Part shown: positions 10,737 through 50,889 of the stretch, in pieces | Layout: the number at the start of each line of letters is the position of its first letter | How positions within the stretch are numbered: position 1 is the first letter of the stretch | Source: Lachnospiraceae bacterium | GTDB taxonomy: Bacteria; Bacillota; Clostridia; Lachnospirales; Lachnospiraceae | Assembly: GCA_045603305.1 (NCBI GenBank) | Contig: JAZULV010000004.1 | Location: 1 to 52,041 of the forward strand | Direction: 5' to 3' | DNA: 52,041 bases | Made by a program: the position numbers and the translations under genes | The notes under the pieces: model-generated | The model's input: only the letters and a program-made list of their open reading frames with translations | Databases searched by the model: none | Told to the model about the DNA's origin: nothing

Positions 10737-13013
10737 TTATTTAGAAACAAATGAATTTGCTGTGCTTCCCGGTGCTGCTTCACCCTTCTTCACAAGTACA
10801 ATTTCTATTCCTTCAAGTCTCTTTGCATATCCTGCTGTTCCTGCTGATGCTCCGTTCTTTGCCCAGCCTAACCATCCGTAACTCTGAGCGTGTACTCTGT
10901 AATATACATCATACTTCTGTGCCATCTCGCCGGTAAGGCGTATCTGGATTGCTTCAAGGCGCTTTGCCTCGCCACTTGTTCCACTGACTGCTCCGTTCCT
11001 TGCCCAGCCTAACCATCCAGAACTTTGAACATGAGTGCGATATTCAATATTTCCTGCAACCTCCTGTCCATCAAGCTTAATCTGAATTGCTTCAAGTCTC
11101 TTTGCCTGACCTTCTGTTCCGCTCATTGCACCATTCTGTGCCCAGTTATTCTCCCAACCGTAGGTCTGTACATGAGTACGATAATTTACATTTGCAATTT
11201 TTTCAATATATGCATTCTCAGTGCTTCCCGGTGCCGGTTTGCCTTTTTCTACAAGAACTATCTGTATACCTTCAAGTCTCTTTGCCAAACCTGCTGTTCC
11301 CGCTGATGCTCCGTTCTTTGCCCAGCCAAGCCAGCCATAGCTCTGTGCATGCACTCTGTAGTATATATCAAATTTTTCTGCCATACCTCCGGTAAGTCTG
11401 ATCTGGATTGCTTCAAGACGCTTCGCTTCGCCACTTGTTCCGCTTATCTCACCATTCCTAGCCCATTCATATTCCCAGCCATAACTCTGAATGTGGGTAC
11501 GATACTCAACACTGCCGTATGAAGAAATATTATCAAGCTTAATCTTAATTGCTTCAAGACGCTTTGCCTCGCCTTGTGTTCCACTCATCTCGCCATCTGC
11601 CGCCCATTCACTTTCCCAACCGTAGGTCTGGACATGAGTAGAGTACTGAACACTGTTAATTGGTAATTCAAGATCTACAAAAGTTATACTATCTGCTTCG
11701 GCAAACTGATGTACAACAGAATTTTTATAACCATAAATAGCTAAATCATAACAAACATTAAATGCATATTCACCTATGCTTGTAACACTGCGTGGTATCA
11801 TCATACTCTCCAAACTACGGCAACCTAGAAAAGCACATTTACCTATCGAGGTCACGCTATCCGGTATTATTACAGATGTCAAACTCTCACACTGACAAAA
11901 TGCATGGTCACCTATTGAAGTTACACTGTCTGGTATTGTTATACTCTCTAAGCTATAACAATTTTCAAATGTACTTTCACCTATACTTGTCACTCCATCA
12001 GGTATTGTTACACTAGTTAATTTGTAACAATTCTTAAACGCCCATTCACCTATTGAGGTTATGCTATCCGGTATTGCTATATTCTTTAAACCAGTACAAT
12101 TAAAAAATGCATTTCCACCTATAACTTTTACTCCATCCGGTATTGTCACTGTTGTCAAACTAGTACATCCGCTAAATGCGATTTCGCCTATACTTGTTGC
12201 ACTATCTGGTATTATTACCTCCACCAAACTATTACAATCGTTAAATGTTGCAGCCTCTATAACCGTTACTCCCTCTGGTATCATTATACTCGTCAAACTC
12301 TTACATTCAGCAAATGCCCATTCACCTATAGAGGTTACACTATCCGGTATATCTATACTTGTCAATTTTTCGCAATGAGCAAACGTATATCTTCCTATAC
12401 TTGTTACTCCTTCCGGTATTGTTATACTTATTGCTAAGCTGCTACAATTTAAAAATGCTCCTTGGCCAATAGAAGTTATAGTGTCAGGTATTGTTATGTT
12501 CACTAAACTACTGCAATTCTCAAATGCAAAATCACTTATATCTGTTGCCTTATCCGGCATCACCACCGTCGTCAAACCAGTGCAGTTTCTAAACATTTCC
12601 TCAGGTATTTCCATTACACTATCCGGTATATCTATACTTGTCAGACCACTACATCCATTAAACGCACCTTCGCCTATTGAAGTTACACTATCCGGTATTG
12701 TTACGCTTGCCAGATTAGTTTCCTTATAAAATGCTAAATCAGCTATACTTGTTACTTTCACTCCATCAATTTCTTCAGGTATCACAAGTTCTTCAATTTC
12801 AGAATCGCATCCTATAATTTCAATAGTGCCATCATCTTTGGTATAATAATATAATGGTATCTCCTCCGCGGCATACACTTTAGTACCTTCAGTTAGGTCT
12901 GCTACATTTGGCACTGATACCACTCTGCTTAAAACCAACAACAAAGCCATACATACAATGCCAGTTTTTCTGATTATACTGTTTTTACTTGATTTAAATC
13001 TACAATCTTTCAT
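10737..13013 (-). CDS. Cell-surface protein with BspA-type leucine-rich repeats (N-terminal half) and six ChW (clostridial hydrophobic-W) repeats (C-terminal half)
   Basis: It has a signal peptide. There are about 11 repeats of IPDSVTSIGEWAFxxCxxLTSxxIP, the LRR_5/BspA pattern. There are six copies of YRTHVQ(T/S)YGWxxxWAxNGxxSGTxGxAKRLEAIQIxL, the ChW pattern. RBS AGGAGAGGA lies upstream. Confidence 0.8.
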   Translation of the reverse strand: MKDCRFKSSKNSIIRKTGIVCMALLLVLSRVVSVPNVADLTEGTKVYAAEEIPLYYYTKDDGTIEIIGCDSEIEELVIPEEIDGVKVTSIADLAFYKETNLASVTIPDSVTSIGEGAFNGCSGLTSIDIPDSVMEIPEEMFRNCTGLTTVVMPDKATDISDFAFENCSSLVNITIPDTITSIGQGAFLNCSSLAISITIPEGVTSIGRYTFAHCEKLTSIDIPDSVTSIGEWAFAECKSLTSIMIPEGVTVIEAATFNDCNSLVEVIIPDSATSIGEIAFSGCTSLTTVTIPDGVKVIGGNAFFNCTGLKNIAIPDSITSIGEWAFKNCYKLTSVTIPDGVTSIGESTFENCYSLESITIPDSVTSIGDHAFCQCESLTSVIIPDSVTSIGKCAFLGCRSLESMMIPRSVTSIGEYAFNVCYDLAIYGYKNSVVHQFAEADSITFVDLELPINSVQYSTHVQTYGWESEWAADGEMSGTQGEAKRLEAIKIKLDNISSYGSVEYRTHIQSYGWEYEWARNGEISGTSGEAKRLEAIQIRLTGGMAEKFDIYYRVHAQSYGWLGWAKNGASAGTAGLAKRLEGIQIVLVEKGKPAPGSTENAYIEKIANVNYRTHVQTYGWENNWAQNGAMSGTEGQAKRLEAIQIKLDGQEVAGNIEYRTHVQSSGWLGWARNGAVSGTSGEAKRLEAIQIRLTGEMAQKYDVYYRVHAQSYGWLGWAKNGASAGTAGYAKRLEGIEIVLVKKGEAAPGSTANSFVSK

Positions 13014-22687: not shown

Positions 22688-23894
22688 ACGCTTCCTTTGT
22701 TTTCAAGTAATCAAGCCGCTCCATCTCTGCAATTGCATCCTCTGATTTGATATGCGTATAGGTATCAAGTGTCACAGAAATGTCTCCGTGTCCCATGATA
22801 TACTGCAATACCTTTGGATTCATTCCCTACTTCGCCATATTGGTACAAAACGTATGTCTGCACACATGTGGCGTAATCTTCGGCAACTGCACTCGATAAG
22901 TCTTATTATACTTTGCAACCGAAAGCTGGAAGTATTTCTCCCAATGCAATGCTACCCTTGGTTTACTGTTCTTGTCTAAAAATAGAAATCCTGAGTATCC
23001 ATCTATAATCGGCTCAATCTTTGGCGTTGGGCGCATCTTGATAATTCGTTTAAATGCATCCATTACATCTGGCGTCATCGGAACCTCACGAACACCATTC
23101 TCGGTTTTCGTTTTCTCACAAACATACCTCATATCACTGGTACGCTGGAGCTGATGATTGACCTTAATGACTTTCTTTCTAAAATCAATATCCTTAATGG
23201 TCAAACCACAAAACTCGCTGATGCGAAGTCCCGTCTTGAACAAGATATAAAATGCATCATAGTATTGGCTATAATGGTCGTCCTCCAAAATAAACTGAAG
23301 GAACTTTCTCTCCTGTTCTCTTGTGAGTGCATCCCTTTTGACACTATCATTCACAACTACCGTATGAAGTTCGAACTGAAAAGGATTCTTGACTATCATA
23401 TCATCATCTTCCGCCATCTGAAATGCAGGACGAAGTACGCCTCGTACGGTATGAATGGTACTGTAGCCACGCCCATTCTTCTGCATGTTAATCAGAAAAA
23501 TCTTTGCATCCGATGTTTTGATACTCGCAATCTTCCTTTGTCCGAAAGGTTCTTTCGCCAAGATATTTTGCACAAATTTGTACCCAGTCTGAGTGCTGTG
23601 TTTTACTCCGGTTTTTGTCATCAAATATTTCTCTACCAATTCACAAACCGTAATATCCTCACAACAGATTTCTAGTCTTAGTTTTTTCTCAATCTCCTTA
23701 ATTTTTTCTCTCAAGGATTTGTCTTTTCGCTTTCCTGCCGGCATAGGGTCCGAAGCAGTAAGTCTCCAACTGTAAACCGTTTTCCTCTGACCAAATGGGG
23801 TAGTATAACGATACGCATAACGCCCATCGTCTAACTGGTTTTCTCCCATTTGAAGCACTCTACCTTTATTGTCACGTCTCTTTGTATTACTCAT
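22688..23894 (-). pseudogene. int: Tn916-family tyrosine integrase (Int-Tn-like) interrupted by an in-frame amber codon at 22827-22829
   Basis: The N-terminus MSNTKRRDNKGRVLQMGENQLDDGRYAYRY... closely parallels Tn916 Int (MSEKRRDNRGRILKTGESQRKDGRY...). The ORF reads ...HVCRHTFCTNMAK then TAG, and the same frame continues GMNPKVLQYIMGHGDISVTLDTYTHIKSEDAIAEMERLDYLKTKEA*. That continuation carries the conserved C-terminal HxxR and catalytic-Tyr motifs. RBS AAAGGAGAA precedes the ATG at 23894. Confidence 0.8.
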
Positions 23895-23961
23895 AATCAT
23901 TCTCCTTTCAAAGAGCTGTGACATGGCTTACAGTTAATATATCATAGCTCTTTAGATTTTT

Positions 23962-24739: not shown

Positions 24740-25237
24740 AAAAAGCTGATTGCAAAAAATGCGTTAATTTTCTTCAACTTTTTCTCCTGTCAGTTATTAC
24801 TTGGAGTCAAAAAATGCTGATGACAAAAAATCCGGCAAAAAAGAAGAAAGTCACCAACATTTCTGCTGATGACTCTAAACCTCAACAATATTTACTTGTA
24901 ACTTCTCATAAGTGGCATTTTCTCACATTCTGAAATTACCGGAAAATTAGTCTCAAAAAATGAGACTGACTTGTCCAGCGTCTCTAAAAAGAATCCATCG
25001 TCGTTAGACAGTTCCCAGTGTCTCTGGACAGAGACACCCAGCAAAATCAAGGGTTTCAGAGGCTCTGTCTAAAATTCCGAAAACGTAGAATTGGTCTACG
25101 TAATTGGACTGCGAAAAAAGCAGGATACGCCTAAAGTTGTATACTTTACGCCAGAAACTTCACTCCCAGGGCGTTCACATTAGGGTTCCCCTAAGACCCG
25201 AATATTGATCATAAAGAACACTTTTGGTCACGATGAC

Positions 25238-25281
25238 CAAAAGTGCATAAAAAATACCAGTGAAACTACAAGACTGTATTT
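25238..25281 (-). terminator. Strong Rho-independent terminator closing the minus-strand defence array
   Basis: On the minus strand, a 12-bp perfect stem ataccagtgaaa / tttcactggtat with a 14-nt loop is followed by U6. A second perfect palindrome, acttttggtca-cga-tgaccaaaagt, lies just downstream at 25209-25235. Confidence 0.6.
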
Positions 25282-27212: not shown

Positions 27213-27878
27213 CTATGCATTAAATGTTATTTTAATTTTATCTGAGAGTTTTTTTTCCTTTATCCACTCTATTATTTCACTTGACAAATCGCCTATTGTC
27301 GCTTTTCCGTCACTAGCCAATCTTAAAAACAGCAATATTTCCGAATCTTGTCCAAGCTCTAAATCATCCAAAATCTGCTCTGCATCCATTTTCCCTTGTT
27401 TCAGATAATTATAACTTTCAACTGAACCATTCCATGTACTTGCTTTTTTTATTTTATTAATTGCAAATGTCGCTCTACTCTCATCTGGCAATATTCCTCT
27501 CACCACATTCAGCAAGCTAAGTATGTTCTCAGTAGTTGCTATATAATACTCTGTCCACTCTTGCCCCAACACAGCATACAATTTCTTTGATTCAGATGAA
27601 ATATATTGTGTTGTTGCATTATTCGCAGCTCCTGATTGAACCACTTTGTCACATGCAACCAAAAAGCCTTTTAACGCACTTACCACATTAGCAGATGGTC
27701 TAAAATCCGAGTTTTCAACTGCAAGATTAACCTCATCAATTATTTGCTTTAAACTTGCAATCAACTGTTTAAAGTTGTAGTCCGCAGTCGCCTGCTTCTT
27801 AGTATCTGCAGAAGCTGTTTCCATTTCGCGAACAGTCTTCATATCAATTATGCATTCATTTAATGTATCAATTAACAT
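27213..27878 (-). CDS. Hypothetical protein (221 aa). It is the last of a three-gene overlapping unit.
   Basis: RBS GGAGGGGA. Its start overlaps the preceding gene by 7 nt. No motif was recognised. Confidence 0.5.
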   Translation of the reverse strand: MLIDTLNECIIDMKTVREMETASADTKKQATADYNFKQLIASLKQIIDEVNLAVENSDFRPSANVVSALKGFLVACDKVVQSGAANNATTQYISSESKKLYAVLGQEWTEYYIATTENILSLLNVVRGILPDESRATFAINKIKKASTWNGSVESYNYLKQGKMDAEQILDDLELGQDSEILLFLRLASDGKATIGDLSSEIIEWIKEKKLSDKIKITFNA

Positions 27879-30800
27879 ACTGTCCCCTCCAATTCAGCAA
27901 TTATTCTACTGCATTCACTAATAGTAACTTTCTCATTATCGAATACATTTTGAGAACCTGTTGGATTACTTCCTCCTCCAAGTTTTGCTTTTCGTACATC
28001 GAGTTCAGCCTGAATCTTTGCTATGTCAGCAACAACTTTCTTTAATAGCAGTTCCAATTTTTCAACTTTTCTAATAGGATCTTGTGAAAATGCCAAAATG
28101 CAATCTAAAGCATTTGCTGTTTTCTGTGCAGCAACTATTTCTTTAATCGCTTTGCTCGTTGACGTAGAGTATTTCTTAACTTCATCAAACAACTCCTGAT
28201 CATACTTTCCAGGCAGCTTTCCATCCTCTGCGGTTCTATAAAATTCAACTATCTTTTCAACCATATCTTCAATTTCTTCGTCATCAACATCCGTTGTTCC
28301 AAAATTTTCTTCGATAGTTGTCATTATCTCAGCAGCCTTTGCAAGCTCATCATCCCGAACTTTATCAAGTCTTTCTAAAATCGTCCTGAGATAATCTCGG
28401 GCATCTCTACGCGGCTTAACAGGATCAACCAAATCTAATACGGAAGATTCAACTGTCAATTTTTCATTTTTAACAGTTCTTACCATTGCATCAAATTTTT
28501 CTCTGTCTAAGAATACTTGCACACGACTCTCACCTTGAATAACATTGCAATACTGTATTACAGTATCTCTATTAATCTTATCATTCTCACTTCTCGTAAT
28601 GATTCCGAGTAACGAATTCCATGCATCTGAATGAGAATTAACACCTAAACCTCTTATTCCATTATCAAGAATGTGTTCTGCTTTTAATCCTTCAACTGTT
28701 GTAGCCTTTGATGACCCAAAGAGAATAACACGATAAAATTCAGCCATCATAGCGCATTTGAAATAATCTATATCTCTATTCTCAAATGTAGTAATGACCT
28801 CTATTAAAGGCTTCTTTATTTTCTCTGTCCAGAGTTGAACTCGATATACACGTCTATCTGCACCGTCAAAATTCCAGCTACGTTTACCAAGTACATTCCA
28901 TTCAAGAAACGCCTCGATAACAGCCTGGGTCTCTCTATCTGCTGGAAGTTTATAAAACATCTGATCCGCGCCTCGCTTCTGACGATCGAAACCTACCAAA
29001 CGGTCCTTTACCCTTTTAATTTTATCAATGTTATCCATAGAAACACCCTCAGCCTGCCAATCAATAGCTGAGTATAAGTAACTGCACATATCCTCTCTTG
29101 CTTTTGAAATTAGAACAACATTACCCGTAGTGGCACCAACATTAATGGTACCTCCTGCAATCCAATTTTCTATTACTTGCAAGCTTTCATTAAGCTGAGC
29201 TCTTTCAGCCTGAATCTTCTGTTCTGCTGCAATCTGCGCAGGTGTTTTTACCACAGTCGTACTTGTTGGAGTTTGACCTGCAGGCTGGTTTGCCGGCTTA
29301 GATTGTGTAGGTTTTCCAGATACTTTCTTTCCGTTTATAAGTGGAAATCCCATATCCTCATATACCTGTGTTGAAAGTCCTGATATATAAGTAGCTTCAC
29401 CTTCTTGGTAAATATCAGTTGTTGCATCACCCCAGATACACATAAAAAGATACATTCTTTCAAACTGTTCATTTGAAGCACCGGTCTTCTGAATAGCATC
29501 TCTAAGGCTTGAATTGATATTTGTATTTATGATTTTAAACCCAGGGAAATTATCAAAATTCCACAAGGCATCTCGAACAGTTTTTTCTACAACATCTCTT
29601 AACAGATATCGAGGGGTTCGATAATTCTCTTGCAAAAGATTATTATACAAATACACTATTGCTCTTCTTGAAAATGGGAAAAGATTTAATGATTTTCCTT
29701 CTTCGGTTATAGCAACATCCCATCCATTACCTTGCTTCACTTCATGCACAGGCAAAGAATCTCCTGAGCCATCCGAAGCAGCCCACTCATCAACTTCATC
29801 TTTAGGTAAAGACATTGCATTCAAGTATCTTCCCACAAACTCGCATAAATCAGCTTCACTAGAGCCGAAAACATCATCTGGGATTACAATGAACTGAGTA
29901 ACACGATCCTTATAGTTATCACGGAAATTACTCTTATAATATTCGCTTGTAGTTCCAATAATTGATGAAATTCTACACATACCTTCCTGCTCGTAATCAC
30001 CGGTATGCCACGTAGTAAGTACATTTAGTAACGCTTCATTGACACCTGTAAAAGCCGTAATATCTTCTATCAACAGCGTTAATGATTTACCTTGCTTCTT
30101 TAATTCTTTTCTTATTTCTTTAAATACCTGTTCAAAGTCTCCTGGTTCCAATCCCGCGCAGCTCTGAATTACTGTATCAACCTTTGAATTAAGATATTTG
30201 GCTACAGCATCTGCAACCTCTGGCTCCATATACAACTTTTCGAGCAAACGTACAGCCTTTTTATCTCCTCCGTCATACTGAACTTTGTCACAGAATGCGA
30301 TATCAACTTGAAAATCCTCTGAAAGGAATTCAGGAACAACATCTCGATTATCTGATGTACTGCTTTCAGCAACTTTAGAATAAATTCTTGCAATTGGACC
30401 ATCATCCGCCATCATTCGTGCCTTAAACAATTCATTATTTAAAAGTGGTGCAATTCTCTTTCTATCAGCATTATTAAGATAATCAATATCTTCGCCATTA
30501 TCATCCTCTATTTCAACAATAAACTGATGATAAATAGCATTCATCAATTTGCTCTCACTAATAGTTGATGTCGCATTAACTAATCTCTCATATAAATCTT
30601 TATTCTGAATGGATGCTACTTCCGGTTTTTCTAAAAGCTGCTTAATTGTTCCTTTCAATGTGTTGTCACTTCTTCGCACAAAAAGAACAACCTCGCTATC
30701 TGGTTTCTGCTTTTCTATTTTTGCATCAAACCATCTAATCAGATGAGATTTACCTGCACCACTTGATCCAATTACAAGAACAAACTGATGCTGATCTTTT

Positions 30801-30991
30801 GGATTTAGTACGACTCTTTTGTATATCTGTTCTTCCGTATATGCTTTGGATGCCGCACTCGAATCATATTCCTTTTGCAATTTAATTTGCTTGAAAGGAA
30901 CATGCGTAGCCATAAAATCACCATATGAACTGGTAATAGTATCTATTCTTACTACTTCTGATAATCTCTGTTTTGCAACTTCTGAATTCAT
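27872..30991 (-). CDS. Large P-loop NTPase (about 1039 aa) of unknown family
   Basis: The ORF track opens on TTG. A likely ATG at 30989-30991 follows an AGGGGG RBS. Walker A is VLVIGSSGAGKSHL and the Walker B-like motif is TLLIEDITAF. There is an internal low-complexity linker (KPTQSKPANQPAGQTPTSTTVVKTPAQIAAEQKIQAERAQ) and a long helical C-terminus. Confidence 0.65.
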   Translation of the reverse strand: MNSEVAKQRLSEVVRIDTITSSYGDFMATHVPFKQIKLQKEYDSSAASKAYTEEQIYKRVVLNPKDQHQFVLVIGSSGAGKSHLIRWFDAKIEKQKPDSEVVLFVRRSDNTLKGTIKQLLEKPEVASIQNKDLYERLVNATSTISESKLMNAIYHQFIVEIEDDNGEDIDYLNNADRKRIAPLLNNELFKARMMADDGPIARIYSKVAESSTSDNRDVVPEFLSEDFQVDIAFCDKVQYDGGDKKAVRLLEKLYMEPEVADAVAKYLNSKVDTVIQSCAGLEPGDFEQVFKEIRKELKKQGKSLTLLIEDITAFTGVNEALLNVLTTWHTGDYEQEGMCRISSIIGTTSEYYKSNFRDNYKDRVTQFIVIPDDVFGSSEADLCEFVGRYLNAMSLPKDEVDEWAASDGSGDSLPVHEVKQGNGWDVAITEEGKSLNLFPFSRRAIVYLYNNLLQENYRTPRYLLRDVVEKTVRDALWNFDNFPGFKIINTNINSSLRDAIQKTGASNEQFERMYLFMCIWGDATTDIYQEGEATYISGLSTQVYEDMGFPLINGKKVSGKPTQSKPANQPAGQTPTSTTVVKTPAQIAAEQKIQAERAQLNESLQVIENWIAGGTINVGATTGNVVLISKAREDMCSYLYSAIDWQAEGVSMDNIDKIKRVKDRLVGFDRQKRGADQMFYKLPADRETQAVIEAFLEWNVLGKRSWNFDGADRRVYRVQLWTEKIKKPLIEVITTFENRDIDYFKCAMMAEFYRVILFGSSKATTVEGLKAEHILDNGIRGLGVNSHSDAWNSLLGIITRSENDKINRDTVIQYCNVIQGESRVQVFLDREKFDAMVRTVKNEKLTVESSVLDLVDPVKPRRDARDYLRTILERLDKVRDDELAKAAEIMTTIEENFGTTDVDDEEIEDMVEKIVEFYRTAEDGKLPGKYDQELFDEVKKYSTSTSKAIKEIVAAQKTANALDCILAFSQDPIRKVEKLELLLKKVVADIAKIQAELDVRKAKLGGGSNPTGSQNVFDNEKVTISECSRIIAELEGTVC

Positions 30992-30993
30992 AC

Positions 30994-31788
30994 TCAACCC
31001 CCTATCGTAATATGGGTAACTGTAGTCTCAAGCTCATGTCCTTCACAGGGATATAACGACCATATTTCTTGAGCATCCAGTCTATGCTCTGCTTTGATTA
31101 CTCCTAAATCGTTGAGCATTCTAATCGCATTTGAAAAACCATAATTAAATGTCTTTGTATCAACAGTATTATGCAAGGCGATTTTTGCATACGGCATTAT
31201 CACATCGACAAATTCATCTATTGCATATTCTGTTTTTTTCTTTAACTTGAGGCTTTCAATAATATCTCTGAGAAAAGCGGCTGCATTTGGAAGCAAAATA
31301 CCAGCAGCACCAGCCTGTGAGTCATGCATATACCCAAATCCCAGAAACGCCATCCAGAATCTCCACGCACGCATATCATCCTCTATTACTTTTTCTCCGA
31401 TATTACGTTCCATAACATCACTCATTTTAGAAACACTATTATGGTCAAGCACTTCTGTTCCCATGTCTAAATACCCTTGAGTAACCTTATAGAACAAGCT
31501 ATCTGAAACAAGCTCCAAGTGCATATTGATATAATGCCTCATGTTATCCATGCTTTTTACTGCATCCTTATCTACCGCTAACGAGATTGTATTTTCCTTT
31601 GTATTTATAAGCTGCAATTGTTCTGCAGCAGTCCTTACAATACCAAAATAAGGCGTCTTACCTCCGAGGTTCTGCGGTTCAAGCAATAGTTTTAGTGTAT
31701 TCTCATCCATTGGCTTGCTTGCCACTTCTCTACAAAGTGCATATACTCTTTCAGGTATTGCAGATGTTTGCATTCTATTTCCAAACAT
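30994..31788 (-). CDS. Hypothetical protein (264 aa)
   Basis: ATG with RBS AAAGGATG. Its stop lies 2 nt from the start of the ATPase gene. No motif was recognised. Confidence 0.5.
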   Translation of the reverse strand: MFGNRMQTSAIPERVYALCREVASKPMDENTLKLLLEPQNLGGKTPYFGIVRTAAEQLQLINTKENTISLAVDKDAVKSMDNMRHYINMHLELVSDSLFYKVTQGYLDMGTEVLDHNSVSKMSDVMERNIGEKVIEDDMRAWRFWMAFLGFGYMHDSQAGAAGILLPNAAAFLRDIIESLKLKKKTEYAIDEFVDVIMPYAKIALHNTVDTKTFNYGFSNAIRMLNDLGVIKAEHRLDAQEIWSLYPCEGHELETTVTHITIGG

Positions 31789-37623: not shown

Positions 37624-40287
37624 TTAGTTTCTTCCATATTTGTATGGTTCCAAACAAATCTCTCTTACACCACAGTACTGACACCACTCATCACAAGATT
37701 TTGCACAGCCAGTTGCATTTACTCTGTTACTGCTTAATCTCGCATCGATTTCACCCTGCGGAACATCCTTAAAATACCCAAAGAAGCTTCCATCACCATT
37801 TCCAAGTTGAAGGTAAATGAACTCCTCACGTTTTTTCATATATATGTCATCCGTAGGACTTATCATTGGAAATGTAGTACCATTTTTAAGCACACTCTTT
37901 TGCAAATAGTTTTTTGCATTCGTAATAATATCCATACGCTCTGTGTGCATATCCTTAACAAACTCAAACTTTCGTTCAAGTTTTTTATACTCATCATTTA
38001 AAGTATCAAGCAACACATCCTCGGTAGCAATCTGTCCCTGCAACACAACTCTCGCCACATTCTCCAACAAAATCTCCAAGTATTTTAACAACAGAAAATG
38101 ATCCCTAAAAACTGCCCTCTTCTCAATTGTAGATTCCAACAAAAATCTGTATTTACATATCTTGTATCGGTAGAAATCATATTGTCCATAATTATTCTCT
38201 GTATTAAGTTCAAGGTGCAAATTTCTTACTGCTTTCGGTAAAGTTCCAGTAGGTTTATCTTTTGGATAAACTTTCTGAGCCTCCAATATCTTCAACAAAT
38301 AGAACATCTCATTCTCTTTATCATCAACATTTTTTACATAGCTTAACTTAAACTTTACCCTGTTAAACTGGAGCCCATATATCAACGCATATCTCTTAAA
38401 ATTCTTATACTCTCTTCTAGATTTAACATAAACCTGGTACTTCCAATCAATTGGATCTTGCGCAACTTCAAAGAAAGTCACGTCCAAAGGCCATGGAAAT
38501 CTATCTCTTCGAGTTACGTTCATATCGTTATCTGAAAGGCAGGCAAAATGATATATTATATCCTTATTCTGTTTTCTACTCTTTAAGATATCGCCATCAA
38601 TCTGCTCAAAATCTCTTACTATCCAATTTGCACTTATCCCCTTTTTAGTCTCCTGTTTCAGATAATAAGCCATTGTCTCTTTCAGCACATCAAAAGAACC
38701 TGTAGCGTCAATCTTATCAACCTCTTCCAAGCGAATGAGCACACGCTTTACTACATCTCTAAATTCATCTTCAATATCTTCCGCTTCAAGTATTCTTGTT
38801 TCAAGGAACTCTTTTATTCTCTTATAGAATTTTTTAAAGTTATTCTCTGTATCCTCAAAATCTGCATAAAATAGCTTTGTAATCTGATCCAGCTGCTCCA
38901 ATGCCGCAACTAATGTATCTATTTCCTCTGAAGTAACGTCAAAGTATACCAATCTACTACCTATGCGTTTTTCAGTTACATCTTTCTCAGCTTTTTTAAT
39001 TCGCTTCTTAAGCTTTCCTAATAGGTCAGTTATCTGATCAATGGTTTCCGCACGTACAAAAAATTCTTTTGTTCTGTTGAAAATAGAATAAAGCTTTCCA
39101 GGAGTTTCTTCTTTTATAAATCCTGAATTCAGACATTCTACAATATCATTCATATTTTCAATCTGAATTCCACCTTCCTCTGGATTCCACATATTCGTAA
39201 TGGAAAGAAAAAAATGTCCAATAGGATATGTCAGGAAATGACGTTCACCAAATTGTCCTGGGTAATAAATCTTGAGGATATTGTTTACGCTGTTATTAGC
39301 CGCATAGAATTGCTCTTGCATATAATAAAGCGTTGATCGCCTTACGTCTTTATCTCTTTCTTGGCGTTTCAATGCGTCCTCAAATACACTAGCAACATAG
39401 CTGGCAAACTCCGTATTATTATCAAACTCCATTACTTCAAAAGGACAATCTTCTTCATTTTCTTCCGGATGTCCCTCTATTAAATTTGCCATTCTATCTG
39501 CTAGCAAATTTCCTTCATAGCTATTCGTCAGCAATGGATTAGGCTTAAACTCATTCGTAAACTGACTTTTGATAGGCATGTCAAATGATGAATATACATC
39601 TATCCATGTCTGATATACATTCTTGTACTGCTGCTGATAATTGAACAAAAGAATTACTCTTTTATACTTTGCCACCAATTCAATAGTTTGAAGAATCATT
39701 GGCGAAAACTGATGTACTCCATGAATCACAATGGTATCTAAATCAACAGCACTTATGTCTGCGTCTTCACGTTCTAACTTCATGCCTTCTCGAATCGCAT
39801 TCTCGATTTCAGCTTCTGAAAAATGTCTTTTCAACGTAAAATCCTGAACCAAATCTGATTTTCTTATTATTCTATAAAGCTCTACAAGGTGGCGTTGTTC
39901 CTCTGTCAACAAATCAGTTCGCATTTCATCAAGGCTCATATCTAGTTCAAACAAAATGCGCAAACTATTACTGAGTTGCTTTCTATTGAATCTTAGCGAC
40001 TGCCTAATCTTTTCTGAATTATCCGTAATGTTCAATCTGGAGATAGCCTCATCTATCACGGTGTATTGCTTTATTTTGCATTCACTGCTTTCCCAATATG
40101 CAAAGAGTCCTTTTACCAAGTTCTCAACAGTAGATACTTTACCTGCTGTCATATCTTCGTACGTTCCCATCATTCCGTTTGCCATAGTTTGTGACACACA
40201 GAAATGAGGGCTATTTTTAATGGAATCCCAGTATAATTCTTTATTTATTTCATATGGATTGCTGTATGTATAAATAGAAAACGGCAT
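37624..40287 (-). CDS. Hypothetical 887-aa protein with a C-terminal Cys cluster that resembles the iron-staple of RecB-family nucleases
   Basis: RBS GGAGGTG. It has no P-loop. A lone Cys lies in HFACLSDNDM about 280 aa before the C-terminus, and the last 30 aa read GCAKSCDEWCQYCGVREIC, which contains C-x2-C-x5-C. That arrangement is used by AddB, Cas4 and Dna2 to frame a PD-(D/E)xK domain. The nuclease motifs themselves could not be confidently located by eye. Confidence 0.5.
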   Translation of the reverse strand: MPFSIYTYSNPYEINKELYWDSIKNSPHFCVSQTMANGMMGTYEDMTAGKVSTVENLVKGLFAYWESSECKIKQYTVIDEAISRLNITDNSEKIRQSLRFNRKQLSNSLRILFELDMSLDEMRTDLLTEEQRHLVELYRIIRKSDLVQDFTLKRHFSEAEIENAIREGMKLEREDADISAVDLDTIVIHGVHQFSPMILQTIELVAKYKRVILLFNYQQQYKNVYQTWIDVYSSFDMPIKSQFTNEFKPNPLLTNSYEGNLLADRMANLIEGHPEENEEDCPFEVMEFDNNTEFASYVASVFEDALKRQERDKDVRRSTLYYMQEQFYAANNSVNNILKIYYPGQFGERHFLTYPIGHFFLSITNMWNPEEGGIQIENMNDIVECLNSGFIKEETPGKLYSIFNRTKEFFVRAETIDQITDLLGKLKKRIKKAEKDVTEKRIGSRLVYFDVTSEEIDTLVAALEQLDQITKLFYADFEDTENNFKKFYKRIKEFLETRILEAEDIEDEFRDVVKRVLIRLEEVDKIDATGSFDVLKETMAYYLKQETKKGISANWIVRDFEQIDGDILKSRKQNKDIIYHFACLSDNDMNVTRRDRFPWPLDVTFFEVAQDPIDWKYQVYVKSRREYKNFKRYALIYGLQFNRVKFKLSYVKNVDDKENEMFYLLKILEAQKVYPKDKPTGTLPKAVRNLHLELNTENNYGQYDFYRYKICKYRFLLESTIEKRAVFRDHFLLLKYLEILLENVARVVLQGQIATEDVLLDTLNDEYKKLERKFEFVKDMHTERMDIITNAKNYLQKSVLKNGTTFPMISPTDDIYMKKREEFIYLQLGNGDGSFFGYFKDVPQGEIDARLSSNRVNATGCAKSCDEWCQYCGVREICLEPYKYGRN

Positions 40288-44258: not shown

Positions 44259-45452
44259 CTACACTTCTTCTCTTAATACCTTTATCAGCTGATTAATATC
44301 TGCTTCTGTCGTATGTTTATTAAGCGATATTCTTAATACCTTTGAAACCTTGTCTTTCAACCCCAATGCAGTTATTACATATGACGGTTCTCCTGCACTA
44401 CATGCAGAACCTGCTGATAATGCTATTCTGTCGCTTATATGCTTTATAAACCTTTCATTATTGAAATCCTTCTTATCGACCACTATACTTATAATTCCGG
44501 GCAATCTCTTCTCTGATAGGTTTGTTAATGATATATCTGGTAACGTCTTTAATCCAGCAACAAGCATCTGATCAAACTGTAAAATCTTCTGTTCATTTGT
44601 ATCGAAATCCCTCATTGCAATGTCTGCAGCTTTACCAAAACCTACAATATTATGAACTGCTAAAGTCCCAGCCCTAAACCCATTTTCCTGTTCACCACCA
44701 TGCATAAATGCAGTAATTGGAGGAATACCATACGCATCACTTTTAATAAATGCTGCTCCTATTCCTTTGGGGCCATAAATCTTGTGCGCTGAACACGAAG
44801 CAAAATCCAATCCCATCGCATGAACATCAATAGCCATTTTCCCTATTGCTTGTGTTAGGTCAGAATGAATTGCAATACCCTTCATTGAACACATCTTAGC
44901 AATTCCAGAGACATCACTAATAGTACCAACTTCATTATTCACATAGATAACAGAAACCATTGCGGTGTTATTCTTTAGCGCTTCCTCTATAGTTGTAACA
45001 AGTATTTCTCCCGTTTCAGTAATACCAACAAAAGAAGCTTCATATCCTCTGTCTACAGATTTTCTCCCACCAAACAATGTTACAGTAGGATCATTATTAG
45101 AATACAAATCACCATTAAGGAATTTGCACGTATTCAATGTGGCCTTATGTTCTGCAACAGATGTAATGATATGGTTCTTTCCATCTCCGTAGTAACGTCG
45201 ATAATCCATATAACCTTTAATAATAAAATTTGTGCTTTCTGTTGCACCTGCTGTAAAAATTATTTCTTCTGGATTAGCTCCCAACAGTTTTGCAACCTGA
45301 ACACGTGCATTTTCTACTGCATTATGAGCGTTAACTGCCTTGCAATAATACTTACTTGAAGGATTGCCATATTCTTCTCGGAGATAAGGGAGCATTGCCT
45401 CCAACACTTCCTCATCCACCGGAGAAGTTGCACTATTATCCAAATAAATCAT
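44259..45452 (-). CDS. dndA: Cysteine desulfurase (NifS/IscS-like), the DndA role in DNA phosphorothioation
   Basis: 397 aa starting MIYLDNSATSPVDEEVLEAMLPYLREEYGNPSS. It has the PLP-lysine region and the active-site Cys loop LSAGSACSAG. Its start overlaps the dndE stop (ATGA). Confidence 0.85.
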   Translation of the reverse strand: MIYLDNSATSPVDEEVLEAMLPYLREEYGNPSSKYYCKAVNAHNAVENARVQVAKLLGANPEEIIFTAGATESTNFIIKGYMDYRRYYGDGKNHIITSVAEHKATLNTCKFLNGDLYSNNDPTVTLFGGRKSVDRGYEASFVGITETGEILVTTIEEALKNNTAMVSVIYVNNEVGTISDVSGIAKMCSMKGIAIHSDLTQAIGKMAIDVHAMGLDFASCSAHKIYGPKGIGAAFIKSDAYGIPPITAFMHGGEQENGFRAGTLAVHNIVGFGKAADIAMRDFDTNEQKILQFDQMLVAGLKTLPDISLTNLSEKRLPGIISIVVDKKDFNNERFIKHISDRIALSAGSACSAGEPSYVITALGLKDKVSKVLRISLNKHTTEADINQLIKVLREEV

Positions 45453-45829
45453 ACAGTATCACCTACTCCTAATACTTGAAGTATGTATTTATCCATGCTT
45501 CCAGCATGATTATACATATCAAGTAGTAATTCACTACCCCTATCAATGTGTGCCTTAACATACTTCGGAAAAAATTCTTCCTCCGGCAAATATCTTCCTT
45601 CAACTTCTTCAATCAAAACCTTGAAATATGTTTCATTATCACCTGTAATTGTCTGCCTGTTAAGATCCAATCCGTCTGAATCAGATTCATAATCTGCAAC
45701 TGAAGAATTCTCTTTCAAAGACCACGCTATTGCATGTTTTACCAAAGTATATGGTTTATAGTTTGTTCTATTTTCTAACTCTTGGAATATTTCCTGAGTT
45801 CTCTTTGATGTTTTTAATCTGAATATCAT
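45449..45829 (-). CDS. dndE: DndE-like small protein
   Basis: 126 aa starting MIFRLKTSKRTQEIFQELENRTNYKPYTLVKHAIAWSL. Its size and its position between dndD and the desulfurase fit DndE. Confidence 0.7.
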   Translation of the reverse strand: MIFRLKTSKRTQEIFQELENRTNYKPYTLVKHAIAWSLKENSSVADYESDSDGLDLNRQTITGDNETYFKVLIEEVEGRYLPEEEFFPKYVKAHIDRGSELLLDMYNHAGSMDKYILQVLGVGDTV

Positions 45830-45832
45830 TGC

Positions 45833-47977
45833 TTACACCTCAAAAAAATAATGTTGTTCTACAGTAGTTCTGTTTTGACTCTCATCATTTATAAGAAGAT
45901 ATTCCTTAGCAATATATGGCTTTATAATCTCGTAATACTCTTCATTTATTTCTTCATCGGTTGAAAGAATTACTACCTGTTTGCTGATATTAGGGAAGAA
46001 CTTCTCTGATATCTCTTTTCTATGGTTAGCATCGATACGCGCATAAGGAGTATCAATAACAAACGGTATATCCTTGCCCGACATTTCTATAATTGCCCAA
46101 TACAATGACAATATAAATATCTGACGTTCACCCTTTGACAAGCGACTAATATCTATACGCTTATACAAATCATAGCTACCACGCTGCGTGTCACACTCTA
46201 TTGCCTGTTGCAATTGTAGAACAGTCTTCGCCTTATACTTTTCACAAAGGATCTTCATTCCCTGCTTTCCAATTTCAAATGCAAACACTTCTTTCCCAAG
46301 ATTCTTCATTAAATAAAGTAATTCTGTGGCACTGTACTTAACATTTTGATAAAGGTTGAATTGAAAATCATCCTCTATTTCGATATGTGTAATTAAATTA
46401 TTCTTTCTATAAATATGCTGTAATTTCTCTACTATCAGTTTTTCAAGTTTACATTTGATCGACTCCGATTTATTATCAAGCATCTTTCCCATCATTTGAG
46501 ACAAGCCCATACTCAATTCAAATATATGTTTATTCTGAGCGTTATCCTTAATACCTTGAAATGCTCGGTCTCTTTGCTGAATTGCTACTGCCAGTTCCTC
46601 TTTCAAAGTTGTTAAACTAATCTCTGCATCATGAATTCTTGACAAAATCTCTTCTTTCTTTTTTAGCAGCGCATTTTCTTTTTCCGCAAACTTCCCTGCA
46701 TCTTCGTCTGTCATCGCACTCTTCAAAATGCGGTTGATTTCCATAGTTCTATCAGCAGCTTCCCGTCTTTTTTCAACCAACTCTACCATTTCCGCAACTT
46801 CAAAATCATCAATCGCAGAAATCATTGCGCTTACTCGACCGTAGTCTTCCTTAGATAGGTCATGCACAGGCTGTGCACCTTCTTTAAAGCCCTTCGGTTT
46901 AAACTTCCTAAGCAAGAATTCCATCAATGCATCAACAGTATCATCACTAACTTCCTGATTCGCATTAAGTGTATTCTGAATTTCCTGTCTCTTTAATTTT
47001 TGCTGAACATAATAATAGATTTCACCTTTTTCCTCAAAATCTAATTGTTCAGAAATTTTTCCTGTAAAATCGCGAAGGATATAAAAAGGCATCAATCCTT
47101 CAACAAACATTTTGATTTTTGTAAGGGTTTCCGTTTTAATATGTTCAGCTTCTGAATACTCTTTCAGAAGTGACTGTCGTTCGATTTCTGTTATTCCTCC
47201 GGCATTCTTAAAGGCACTCTCAACCTCAATCAATTCCGTTTCAATTTTCTCTAACTCACTTCTATCCGCTACAAGTTGAGATTCTAACGCTGAATAGTTT
47301 GTCTCTATTTCCTCTGCATTTCTACGCAGCTCTTCATATTGTGTATATATTTCTTCTTCATCATTACTTAAAGCTTTTCCCGCATATCCTGTTGTATACT
47401 TTCTAATAATTTCAAAGATATCTAATCCACACAAAGTATAAACTGCATTTTTGACGTAAGAGTTGTATGTGCTCGTCGAGAAAATGCTTCCAACTTCCTC
47501 ACCATCGAACAAGAAAAATTCAAACAAGTCCGGTGGAATCATACCCTGTAAATAGTTCTGGAAATATGACAACTCTTGATTATCTAATATACGACCTTCT
47601 GTTTTAACATAATACTTTTCTTCTAATTTGTGTTTTGTATAATCCCACGCTCTTGTTATCTCGTATTCTTTAACTTCTCGCTCAACCATCAAAGATACAA
47701 ATATCTGAACTCTTGATTCGACAACATCTTTCTGAAAAGATTTAGAATTAATGCAATCCTTGATTTTTGCAATATACGTAGGATTAACACCCACATAACC
47801 AAATGATAATGGTCCATATAGCGCTATCTTAATAGCAGAAAATAACGAGGTCTTTCCCGCTCCATTCTTTCCACCAATCAGAATAATGTTTTTACTATTA
47901 TCATCACTTGTGAAGTCAAACTCATTCAATCCTTCATAGGAGTTGAAATTATATAACACTATTTTATTTATTTTCAT
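45833..47977 (-). CDS. dndD: DndD, SMC/ABC-like ATPase of the DNA phosphorothioation system
   Basis: The track start is TTG. An ATG at about 47977 (MKINKIVLYNF) follows AAGGAG. Walker A is IGGKNGAGKTSLFSAI. There are long coiled-coil segments. The C-terminus has LSKGERQ (signature-like), PFVIDTP (Walker B) and ARID (D-loop). Confidence 0.85.
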   Translation of the reverse strand: MKINKIVLYNFNSYEGLNEFDFTSDDNSKNIILIGGKNGAGKTSLFSAIKIALYGPLSFGYVGVNPTYIAKIKDCINSKSFQKDVVESRVQIFVSLMVEREVKEYEITRAWDYTKHKLEEKYYVKTEGRILDNQELSYFQNYLQGMIPPDLFEFFLFDGEEVGSIFSTSTYNSYVKNAVYTLCGLDIFEIIRKYTTGYAGKALSNDEEEIYTQYEELRRNAEEIETNYSALESQLVADRSELEKIETELIEVESAFKNAGGITEIERQSLLKEYSEAEHIKTETLTKIKMFVEGLMPFYILRDFTGKISEQLDFEEKGEIYYYVQQKLKRQEIQNTLNANQEVSDDTVDALMEFLLRKFKPKGFKEGAQPVHDLSKEDYGRVSAMISAIDDFEVAEMVELVEKRREAADRTMEINRILKSAMTDEDAGKFAEKENALLKKKEEILSRIHDAEISLTTLKEELAVAIQQRDRAFQGIKDNAQNKHIFELSMGLSQMMGKMLDNKSESIKCKLEKLIVEKLQHIYRKNNLITHIEIEDDFQFNLYQNVKYSATELLYLMKNLGKEVFAFEIGKQGMKILCEKYKAKTVLQLQQAIECDTQRGSYDLYKRIDISRLSKGERQIFILSLYWAIIEMSGKDIPFVIDTPYARIDANHRKEISEKFFPNISKQVVILSTDEEINEEYYEIIKPYIAKEYLLINDESQNRTTVEQHYFFEV

Positions 47978-49355
47978 CTTCAATCTCCTTTAGAATTTCA
48001 TGATGAAGCCATTGCTGATTAAGCAAACGTTCCAAAGCATCCTTCATAATTTTTTGATTCGAATAATTTTTATTATGATAAACAGAAAGAATTACATTTC
48101 TAACCAAATCAAATGGAACATCGTTTGCTTCTGCTAATCTCTCTAATTCATCTACAGTCTCTTTATCAATCAGAGGTTCTTTATACTGATCCCATGGTAA
48201 TTTCTCGCCGGTTAGCTCTTCGTATAACTCGACAAGCGTTCGTCTTGAAAGATCTAATTCATCATCCCATATCTCATCAATTGCTTTAAGTTCTTCCTGA
48301 GTGATGAGTTCGTATCCCATTTGTTGCTGAGTTTCTATTAGCTTTGTCAAAATTAGCTTTCTGGCCTCCCAGGTAAATGGGCCATAGCCCATCTCTCCCG
48401 TCTTTGTTTCATAGACAGTTCCGTTCCTTCGCTTTTTCTCACGGTATTCATCTTTATCACGAATACTCATAATCCAAGTTCTAAATTCTGCTAAAGGAAT
48501 CAATTCTCTATGACCACTCCTGATAAATCCATTTAATGATTTATCATCTTTAACAACAGTACACACCCAACATCCAAATCTAGAATTACCACATGACTGT
48601 GTCTGCCCACCAGCATTAGCTCCTGCAAAAGGACATTCTCCACTATCCGCATCAGCATATAACGCGACAAGTTCATTATTGTTAGAACCCCAAGGTGTTT
48701 TCCCGCCATCAAGCTTTAAAAGAACATCCCAAACATCATCTGTTGTCAATTCGACTATTGGATTATATACATACGCATCTTGAATTGTTTCATGTCTATT
48801 CATCAAACGATTAGCTAATTCTCTACCTTCAATACGCCTTCTACGCGCTTCACTTTCAGCTTTTCGAACGCCTAGAAGAACAACAACCTCTTCACCTTCT
48901 TTTTTTATCACATCCCTAATATAATCAGCACTAGGATTAATCTTAAGCCTATCCGTACACCATCTAAAAGTTCCATTCATTCTTGGCGTTGGAAACCCTC
49001 GACCTATTACATTTGCCCAAAATGAGTTATCTGCTGGTGGTGTTACCATCGTAGAAATAACAGGCAACTCATCTTTGGCTGCAGCGTCACCAAGAAGTTT
49101 ATTCATTTTATTGAGATATATTTTTATCAAAGGATTCTCAATAAGTGTATCTGAAGAAACAATATAAACACTCTTATTTCTTTCCTCTTTCGGAAGGGTT
49201 AATAACATCTTATAAACCAATTCAACGACGGTCGTAGAATCCTTTCCTCCGCTATATCCAATTACCCAAGGGCGCTTATCCGACTGATAAACATACTTAA
49301 TCTCTTCTATCAGTTCCTCTAGCGTATTCTCATTAAAATAACTATTCGTTGCCAT
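47964..49355 (-). CDS. dndC: DndC, PAPS-reductase-like PP-loop ATP pyrophosphatase with a Cys cluster
   Basis: 463 aa with GYSGGKDSTTVVEL (PP-loop SGGKDS) and DSGECPFAGANAGGQTQSCGNSRFGCWVCT (Fe-S Cys cluster). RBS GAGGTAG. It overlaps dndD by about 14 nt. Confidence 0.9.
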   Translation of the reverse strand: MATNSYFNENTLEELIEEIKYVYQSDKRPWVIGYSGGKDSTTVVELVYKMLLTLPKEERNKSVYIVSSDTLIENPLIKIYLNKMNKLLGDAAAKDELPVISTMVTPPADNSFWANVIGRGFPTPRMNGTFRWCTDRLKINPSADYIRDVIKKEGEEVVVLLGVRKAESEARRRRIEGRELANRLMNRHETIQDAYVYNPIVELTTDDVWDVLLKLDGGKTPWGSNNNELVALYADADSGECPFAGANAGGQTQSCGNSRFGCWVCTVVKDDKSLNGFIRSGHRELIPLAEFRTWIMSIRDKDEYREKKRRNGTVYETKTGEMGYGPFTWEARKLILTKLIETQQQMGYELITQEELKAIDEIWDDELDLSRRTLVELYEELTGEKLPWDQYKEPLIDKETVDELERLAEANDVPFDLVRNVILSVYHNKNYSNQKIMKDALERLLNQQWLHHEILKEIEDENK

Positions 49356-49689: not shown

Positions 49690-49887
49690 TCTCCATCAAA
49701 ACAAAGGATACAATAGGGCATATTTTACCCAGTTTGCACAGTTATACCGAATACAAATTATACACGAAAAGCTCAATAAATACAACAAAATTACGTATAT
49801 TCGCCCTTGACCAACAATATTATTGTATTTTATAATATATACAAACTTTTTGTTAGTCGTTACAAAGAAAAGGAGGATAAAACAAAA

Positions 49888-50889
49888 ATGATTTGTAAAA
49901 AATGCCAAGAAAAACTTACTCCCAATAATACTTATCCATCAGACCACCGATACTGCATAACATGTGGTAAGGAACATACCGAACACCTCTCTGAACGTAG
50001 ACAAACCTTATTATCGTTACGCGAAATGAATTTGGAATCTAAAATTATTCAAACCAAGTACCTAATAAAATGTGCCATTAGGGAATTCGGACTTGACAAA
50101 GTGTATATATCATATTCTGGCGGTAAAGATTCAACAGTTCTTTCCCATATTGCCAAAAGCATATACCCCGATATCTTACACTTGTTTGCTAATACAACAA
50201 ACGAATATCCCGAAACCATCCAACATATCAAGTGGGAAAAGGACGAAAATGGAACAAATATCATTTCCGTCCTTCCCATAGATTGCCACGGAGAACTTTG
50301 GACTTTTAAAAAAGTTGTCGAGCGATATGGATATCCGATGTTCTCCAAGCGGGTGTCTAATGCTATACGAACATATCAACATGCACTTTCCGAACGTACA
50401 AAGCAGAATTCACAAAATTACATCGATCGGAACTTTAAAAAGTATGATAAGTACAAAGATCTACCAATATCTGATAAGTGTTGTGATAAATTAAAAAAGG
50501 AACCTCTTCGTCGAAAAGCTAAAGAACTCGGATTAGAATGTGCTATCTTAGGCATACTTGCCTCCGAAAGTTACCAACGTGAAAAAGATTGGTTAGAACA
50601 TGGTTGCAACGTATTCCACAAACGAAATGATAATCAAAGTCGTCCATTATCTTTTTGGACTGATGAGGATATCCTCGAATACATCGCCAAATACGATGTT
50701 AACATTCCCAAACTCTATGAGATGGGCTATAACAGAAATGGCTGTATGTATTGCGGTTTTGGCGTTCATTTAGAACCTTCACACTGCAATAGATTCCAAA
50801 AGCTAAAGCAAACACATCCAACTCAATATACCTATTTTCTAAATAACTTTGGACAACTTATGCTTGAATTCGAGATAAATATTGTATAA
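49888..50889 (+). CDS. Zinc-ribbon plus PAPS-reductase-like (PP-loop) protein, divergent from the HTH/dnd operon
   Basis: The track start (49807) is TTG. A real ATG at 49888 follows AAGGAGGA. The N-terminus has CKKCQEKL...CITCGKEH (a C4 ribbon). It then has YISYSGGKDSTVL (PP-loop) and C-terminal Cys residues (NGCMYCGF). Confidence 0.75.
   Translation: MICKKCQEKLTPNNTYPSDHRYCITCGKEHTEHLSERRQTLLSLREMNLESKIIQTKYLIKCAIREFGLDKVYISYSGGKDSTVLSHIAKSIYPDILHLFANTTNEYPETIQHIKWEKDENGTNIISVLPIDCHGELWTFKKVVERYGYPMFSKRVSNAIRTYQHALSERTKQNSQNYIDRNFKKYDKYKDLPISDKCCDKLKKEPLRRKAKELGLECAILGILASESYQREKDWLEHGCNVFHKRNDNQSRPLSFWTDEDILEYIAKYDVNIPKLYEMGYNRNGCMYCGFGVHLEPSHCNRFQKLKQTHPTQYTYFLNNFGQLMLEFEINIV

Follow-up and report, generated by a model that had tools for sequence, protein, structure and literature searches.

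DpdG/DpdH/DpdI homologues in a seven-gene module beside dnd genes of a Lachnospiraceae bacterium: a probable restriction partner of DNA phosphorothioation

Which genes could form the restriction half of a phosphorothioate (PT) restriction-modification (R-M) system is the question raised by a dnd locus of a Lachnospiraceae bacterium (GenBank assembly GCA_045603305.1, contig JAZULV010000004.1). We analysed a stretch of 52,041 nucleotides (positions 1 to 52,041 of the forward strand, hereafter the window), in which a preliminary description, made from the sequence alone, had picked out three closely packed genes of no recognised family (264 amino acids (aa), a P-loop ATPase of 1041 aa, and 221 aa) and had suggested that they might be the Pbe/SspFGH-like part of a PT locus. 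Judged by sequence comparison, the three are very probably homologues of DpdG, DpdH and DpdI of the Dpd (7-deazaguanine) system, and they close a seven-gene module (in order: a NERD-UvrD fusion, an 887-aa protein with a cysteine cluster, and DpdE-, DpdF-, DpdG-, DpdH- and DpdI-like proteins) that is probably a so far undescribed restriction partner of the neighbouring dnd genes.

The ATPase was matched by the NCBIfam model of DpdH (NF041065; E 6.5e-100, 336 bits, profile positions 7-982 of 1014), a score that falls short of the curated equivalog cut-off (450 bits) while leaving the homology clear, and by 12 DpdH models of PADLOC (best E 6e-50). Its matches in Pfam were generic P-loop ones (AAA_22 and AAA_16, residues 67-135). 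The Walker A (GSSGAGKSH, 77-85) and Walker B (LLIED, 308-312) motifs that had been reported for it are in place (1041-aa numbering), lie approximately 230 residues apart, and are conserved, with G.SG.GKSH and IED kept in at least 93% of 49 homologues. The Pro/Thr/Gln-rich stretch, previously described as a flexible linker (residues ~560-590), proved variable and is predicted to be disordered (predicted local distance difference test score, pLDDT, <50), and the rest of the protein is mostly helical in a low-confidence AlphaFold2 (AF2) model. The DpdH-like family is large (1365 clusters at 90% identity), and an exact-sequence look-up of the ATPase, with either of its two possible start codons, gave no match. 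Sequence searches of the PDB (with the ATPase and with profiles of the DpdG-like and 887-aa proteins) returned no meaningful match. In a rough neighbour-joining tree of DpdH, most of the dnd-linked sequences formed a single clade inside the Dpd-type diversity, next to the Dpd forms of Paenibacillus and Bacillus; the DpdH of the dnd-linked Oceanirhabdus locus (L049) grouped with the Paenibacillus and Bacillus forms instead.

Neither of the two small proteins was matched in Pfam, and their assignment was reached by comparing families. The alignment of the 264-aa family (25 sequences) matched four DpdG sequences over its full length (hhalign, 97.5%, E 6e-12), and the window protein matched the DpdG-like counterpart encoded on the Paenibacillus sp. 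37 plasmid pART37 (BLASTP E 3e-20), while reaching an E-value of only 0.052 with the NCBIfam DpdG model. Its AF2 model (pLDDT 89.7) consists of three tandem winged-helix domains, and the most conserved motif of the family, WRFW...G.G, runs from the end of helix 136-149 into the first part of the beta-hairpin that follows it in the middle domain, a site that may be read, on this model, as the recognition helix and wing of that domain; the four DpdG sequences share a related consensus motif (RW.R.LGFA). Many homologues carry a precomputed Pfam accession (PF28110.1, seen without its family name), and a recent Pfam release may already hold a model of the DpdG-like family.

For the 221-aa family (47 diverse members) the match with four DpdI sequences covered the C-terminal 127 columns (hhalign, 97.1%, E 6.3e-11; 91% with a shallow alignment), and the C-terminus of the DpdI-like protein of the Paenibacillus plasmid, a source of intermediate forms for both small proteins, matched the window protein at E 7e-10. 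These proteins evolve fast, except for a conserved C-terminal motif of ~45 aa that is common to DpdI, and the PADLOC DpdI model matched a single one of the 47 members. The 221-aa gene directly follows the DpdH-like one, as DpdI does in canonical dpd clusters. A profile search of the DpdI-like family recovered 385 cluster representatives (50% identity); fusions with DpdH or with BrxC-like proteins were sought among them, and nearly all of the 150 matches listed were stand-alone proteins of ~220 aa (215-228 aa).

The annotated dpd clusters of E. cloacae pPOL9A and of the Nostoc plasmid pNFSY08 have the order dpdE-dpdF-dpdG-dpdH-DpdI (dpdG of 291-306 aa, dpdH of ~1040-1070 aa, and an unnamed gene of 234-282 aa that corresponds to DpdI), and the same order, with similar sizes, is found in the window. 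In these clusters dpdJ, dpdK and dpdD come after DpdI. Both the homology and the order of the E-to-I genes would also fit a standard Dpd (7-deazaguanine) system that has its modification genes at another place in the genome. We nevertheless consider this highly improbable, given that DpdA, DpdB, DpdJ, DpdK and DpdD were not found in the 52-kb contig (tblastn, E<=0.01) and that dnd genes were seen in all informative loci of the survey described below.

Rearranged relatives of these clusters were also observed. On pART37 (L002, 3005-26363) DpdE-, DpdF-, DpdG-, DpdH- and DpdI-like genes are flanked by two copies of dpdJ and by dpdK, with neither dpdA nor dpdB annotated in the 18 kb to each side; the cluster has the look of a further Dpd-like variant with rearranged genes, and it is the closest non-dnd relative of the window trio. 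Two alphaproteobacterial plasmids (Skermanella, L004 19009-27662; Caulobacter, L005 18914-27507) carry, after F-G-H-I and in place of dpdJ, dpdK and dpdD, a convergent pair coding for a ~2100-aa protein with an AAA domain and a ~770-aa protein, which is a further effector swap around the F-G-H-I core; the Caulobacter locus has an unnamed helicase and lacks dpdE.

The close packing of the three genes was borne out by reading the sequence directly (all on the minus strand). The 264-aa gene ends in ...ITIGG-TGA, and the ATG of the ATPase gene (30991) follows 2 bases on, with a ribosome-binding site (AGGGGG) ahead of it; the ATPase stop overlaps the ATG of the 221-aa gene by 7 nucleotides (nt; ATGTTAA), with GGAGGGG upstream. 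The length of 1041 aa given earlier for the ATPase holds for an open reading frame (ORF) begun at the TTG at 30997, but the homologues are mostly 1039-1040 aa long (among the matches listed), hence the protein most likely starts at the ATG and has 1039 aa, the former figure being a two-residue overestimate. The G-H-I-like trio recurs with unchanged order in ~50 loci of other genomes, with equally tight junctions in the gene tables of a few of these loci, and its arrangement is thus not a matter of chance.

The Pbe/SspFGH-like interpretation envisaged a PT-dependent module with a DUF499-type ATPase, a DUF4007 protein and a divergent PP-loop gene. It was right in placing the trio in a PT-related locus, and the multi-winged-helix fold class of the DpdG-like protein has in published work also been given to DUF4007/BrxA-type proteins. 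The expected families were nonetheless missing: none of the three proteins matched DUF499, DUF4007, DUF1819 or DUF1788 in Pfam (even at E<=10) or the Pbe and Ssp models of PADLOC, the ATPase matched DpdH instead, and the PT genes proved to be of the dnd type (DndC, D, E, A) and not of the ssp type. SspE-type matches were confined to the neighbouring GmrSD gene. Consequently, this reading now retains hardly any probability. A gene with a PAPS-reductase (PP-loop) domain (360 aa, 49807-50889, plus strand; Pfam 1e-24, weak matches to the BrxP and SspD models of PADLOC) does lie divergently from dndC across a 450-nt gap; it was present in no other fetched locus, although the window-type loci did not extend that far. 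The same description had held BREX to be unlikely, which agrees with the absence of PglZ, PglX, BrxL and BrxB from the window; a likeness to BREX lies in the GmrSD gene that follows the trio, as the GmrSD gene BrxU (L061:18711-20474) follows brxC in pEFER. Its BrxC comparison was not unreasonable at the superfamily level, since a 2025 preprint describes DpdH plus DpdI as BrxC-like (and DpdE as BrxHII-like), but our own profile comparison did not recover that link.

The extent of the module, and its association with dnd, were established from other genomes. All loci fetched around DpdH homologues at 47-71% identity contain these seven genes in an identical order (coding for a NERD-UvrD helicase of ~1040 aa, an unannotated protein of ~887 aa, an SNF2 helicase, a DEAD helicase, and proteins of ~260, ~1035 and ~220 aa), and since the content 3' of the ~220-aa gene varies between loci (resolvase, HNH or dnd) we place the end of the module at the DpdI-like gene. 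In a survey of one genome per species, scanned with peptide patterns from an alignment of the DpdE-like protein, 48 loci were returned (from Lachnospiraceae, other Clostridia, Negativicutes, Erysipelotrichales, a Raoultibacter and others), onto which the window proteins and the canonical Dpd proteins were mapped by tblastn. At least six of the seven module genes were present in 44 of these 48 species-representative loci, and dnd genes stood immediately beside the module in all 39 loci, from species of gut and soil Firmicutes, in which at least 2.8 kb was visible on both sides. The linkage takes three forms: dndCDEA upstream, dndB-C-D downstream and co-directional, or dndA-E-D-C-B convergent (as in Clostridium butyricum, where the convergent genes come after the same seven). 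Eight module loci had no visible dnd, every one of them cut by a contig end. DpdA was found by tblastn in none of the 47 dnd-type loci (L013-L059; DpdB was queried and not tabulated). In the remaining locus (Bacillus sp. 165, L060, ~30% identity) DpdA lies upstream and DpdJ downstream, while dnd, the NERD-UvrD gene and the 887-aa gene are missing, and the locus therefore represents a true Dpd system; apart from one unexamined DpdJ match in L043, it was the only surveyed locus with canonical Dpd genes. The earlier proposal that the trio is one functional unit on the restriction side of a PT locus is thus supported by a conserved synteny with dnd, and functional coupling of the module to Dnd appears quite likely.

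It could be argued that the module is a self-contained defence system, blind to DNA modification, that merely travels with dnd on mobile islands. Rakesh et al. 2024 argue for a frequent functional uncoupling of Dnd modification modules from the restriction modules next to them, the island in the window also encodes further independent nucleases (Mrr, GmrSD) and an integrase of the Tn916 type, and what lies beyond the last module gene differs between loci. A chance companion would, however, hardly be expected to keep its place beside dnd in every informative locus, through three rearrangements and down to ~29% DpdH identity; furthermore, the sole dnd-free relative carries DpdA, another DNA-marking enzyme, and in the window the module extends free of gaps from the dndA side to the DndI-like gene. 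We judge this alternative unlikely, though it keeps more weight than any other, and prefer coupling of the module to Dnd.

The first two module genes are candidates for the nuclease part. The NERD-UvrD protein (a NERD nuclease fused to a UvrD/RecB-type superfamily 1 (SF1) helicase) matched recB (1.1e-45) and addA (6e-32) in NCBIfam, and the PD-(D/E)xK nuclease motif of its NERD domain (D48...E62-V-K64) is conserved among homologues. The 887-aa gene lies invariably between the NERD-UvrD and the DpdE-like genes; its product has four conserved cysteines (C711, C869-x2-C872-x5-C878) and 168 positions that are at least 93% conserved, had no match in Pfam, PADLOC, NCBIfam or the PDB sequences, and has no similarity to the 935-aa protein found at the same position in Paenibacillus. 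Its cysteine spacing (C...CxxCxxxxxC) is that of the iron-staple of AddB, Cas4 and Dna2 nucleases. On account of this spacing and of the recB and addA matches of its UvrD/RecB-like partner, the two proteins may, by analogy, form an AddAB-like helicase-nuclease pair. The Dnd neighbourhood survey of Rakesh et al. 2024 reports NERD nucleases at the edges of Dnd systems and mentions neither UvrD nor Dpd.

The conserved nuclease motif bears on another possibility, namely that the module, instead of restricting foreign DNA, assists or regulates phosphorothioation (for example by scanning DNA or selecting targets). The known regulator DndB was not found in the window and is missing from its usual place in all window-type loci (in L020 a trace of it, a match of 23% identity only, lies downstream of the DpdI-like gene), and DNA motors and DNA-binding domains abound in the module. 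The idea is at odds, though, with the co-occurrence of DndB and the module in most loci, with the PD-(D/E)xK motif itself, and with published genetics by which dpdD-K, the closest relatives, make up the restriction part of Dpd. We consider it very unlikely, and restriction of foreign DNA the better account.

We read the array in the window as a restriction core of the Dpd type that has become coupled anew, to marking by phosphorothioate. The module would likely act as the restriction half, and DndCDE(A) as the modification half, of a PT R-M system that is Dpd-like and uses backbone sulfur as its mark of self. Homology, gene order, strict linkage to dnd and motif conservation are established by the comparisons above; the mechanism, for which we infer both the individual protein roles and the dependence on PT, is speculative in its details: DndCDEA would mark host DNA with backbone sulfur; the DpdG-like protein (a predicted three-winged-helix DNA binder), the DpdH-like protein (a large NTPase) and the DpdI-like protein (their putative small helical partner) would form a sub-complex on DNA in which nucleoside triphosphate hydrolysis may serve as the switch for surveillance or licensing; the two motors, SNF2 and DEAD, would translocate along DNA; and unmarked DNA would be degraded by NERD-UvrD, perhaps with the 887-aa protein in the AddAB-like pair.

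Several observations weigh against this interpretation. All four Dpd-like proteins of the window for which an NCBIfam model exists score under its equivalog cut-off, therefore their function may have diverged. The link of the module to restriction and to PT is a prediction; adjacency to dnd could reflect co-transfer within defence islands, and the survey, being built on clade-specific peptide patterns, samples this DpdE-like clade only. In the trio we recognised no domain of a PT-sensing kind. The ATPase was modelled poorly by AF2 (pLDDT 65, predicted template modelling score 0.38), and a Foldseek search with this model returned nothing below E 0.1. Finally, hhalign comparisons of the three families with BrxA, BrxB and BrxC of pEFER (single sequences, hence a weak test) recovered the Walker A loop only.

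Set beside known systems, the locus shares with Dpd five consecutive homologues (E-F-G-H-I) in the same order and with tight junctions in both; it differs in lacking DpdA/B/C and the preQ0 genes, the adjacent modification genes being dndCDE(A), and in having NERD-UvrD and the 887-aa protein in place of DpdJ (a YprA helicase), DpdK (a PLD nuclease) and DpdD. With the Dnd R-M systems (DndBCDE with DndFGH or DndI) it has in common the modification genes, an adjacent multi-gene and ATP-dependent restriction-type module, and, as in DndI-type systems, a DndI/Orf5-like GmrSD protein. Unlike them it has no homologues of DndF, DndG or DndH (the ATPase matched PADLOC DndF over 29 residues of the P-loop only, E 4.9e-4), and its partner module is Dpd-derived. 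A reuse of DpdG and DpdH/I in a rearranged system has likewise been described for BRIGADE (Dpd/ARMADA hybrids of halophilic archaea, 2025 preprint), which keeps 7-deazaguanine biosynthesis genes and YprA helicases, whereas the window system has neither and is bacterial (Bacillota). In the searchable literature we encountered no account of DpdE-I-type genes coupled to a Dnd module, although other papers or supplementary tables may hold one; Dpd surveys have been anchored on DpdA/B or on YprA helicases.

The complete array of the window measures ~24 kb and runs from dndC-D-E-A through an Mrr gene and the seven-gene module to a DndI-like GmrSD gene, 13 genes among which no gap exceeds 26 nt (Table 1). 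The Mrr gene is accessory and occurs mainly in window-type loci. A GmrSD gene of the DndI ('Orf5') kind was found in the window and in L017 only among the surveyed loci; it closes the array and is predicted to be an accessory second PT-linked effector. DndI itself, a DUF262 + DUF1524 protein whose gene neighbours dndBCDE in Salmonella, acts as a PT-sensing nickase (PMC11662687). The hairpin of Table 1 lies ~150 nt past this last gene and was located by a consensus scan only; promoter-like sites in the window were not above chance.

Table 1. Positions of the dnd genes, the module genes and associated features in the window
Feature	Position	Strand	Basis or remark
dnd gene block dndC-D-E-A	44259-49355	-	
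dndC	47964-49355	-	PADLOC 2.2e-139
dndD	45833-47983	-	PADLOC 4.3e-122
dndE	45449-45829	-	PADLOC 1.2e-11; Pfam DndE 7.5e-25
dndA	44259-45452	-	PADLOC 1.6e-119
Mrr-type restriction endonuclease, 272 aa	43429-44247	-	Pfam Mrr_cat 5e-33; PADLOC mREase_IV 2e-49
NERD nuclease + UvrD/RecB-type SF1 helicase fusion, 1043 aa	40291-43422	-	Pfam NERD, UvrD-helicase, UvrD_C; module gene 1
887-aa protein, four conserved cysteines	37624-40287	-	present in all module loci
DpdE-like SNF2 helicase, 1112 aa	34267-37605	-	NCBIfam DpdE E 6e-107, 359 bits (cut-off 500); PADLOC 2.2e-77
DpdF-like DEAD/RecQ-type helicase, 833 aa	31793-34294	-	NCBIfam DpdF E 5.6e-138, 462 bits (cut-off 550); PADLOC 3.2e-109
DpdG-like protein, 264 aa	30994-31788	-	ATG start; ORF list
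DpdH-like P-loop NTPase, 1039 aa	27872-30991	-	alternative TTG start at 30997 gives 1041 aa
DpdI-like small helical protein, 221 aa	27213-27878	-	ATG start; ORF list
GmrSD-type (DUF262 + DUF1524) protein, 597 aa	25393-27186	-	PADLOC Orf5 4.8e-185, full length; Pfam GmrSD_N, GmrSD_C
Terminator-like hairpin	25218-25246	-	13-bp stem, then T-run

The wider surroundings offer some further observations. A Tn916-type tyrosine integrase (22827-23924, minus strand) is encoded at the inner edge of the island, the GC content drops from ~0.41-0.44 to ~0.35-0.37 at ~24 kb and stays there up to the contig end, housekeeping genes (MetK, MurA, GatA/GatB) make up the left flank, and no tRNA genes were found in the window; an integrative element may carry the entire defence array. 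A 758-aa surface-type protein (10737-13013, minus strand) combines BspA-type leucine-rich repeats with six ChW repeats, a composition typical of Clostridia and consistent with a Lachnospiraceae-like host.

We lean slightly towards a broader view, in which DpdE-F-G-H-I forms a core for DNA surveillance that is indifferent to the mark and that evolution has joined to two self marks of unrelated chemistry, 7-deazaguanine and phosphorothioate. If true, the former would combine the DpdA/B/C mark with DpdJ/K/D as effectors, and the latter the DndBCDE mark with NERD-UvrD and the Cys-cluster protein. A core that operates on a different DNA mark with swapped effectors would, moreover, separate the generic parts (E to I) from those that are possibly mark- or effector-specific. 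Standard models leave an annotation gap here: they miss DpdG and DpdI and score DpdE, DpdF and DpdH under their equivalog cut-offs, and because they name only some of the genes such loci are now called 'dnd modification only'. In gut Clostridiales and Lachnospiraceae that carry dnd genes, PT modification of the DNA has been measured, with the restriction partner left unnamed (PMC12914056). For these bacteria the module is a concrete and widespread candidate; if the reading holds, it would add a new class of PT-dependent restriction partner to DndFGH, DndI, PbeABCD, SspE, SspFGH and TdpAB, and the Dnd-coupled form would be the main PT restriction partner in human-gut Lachnospiraceae.

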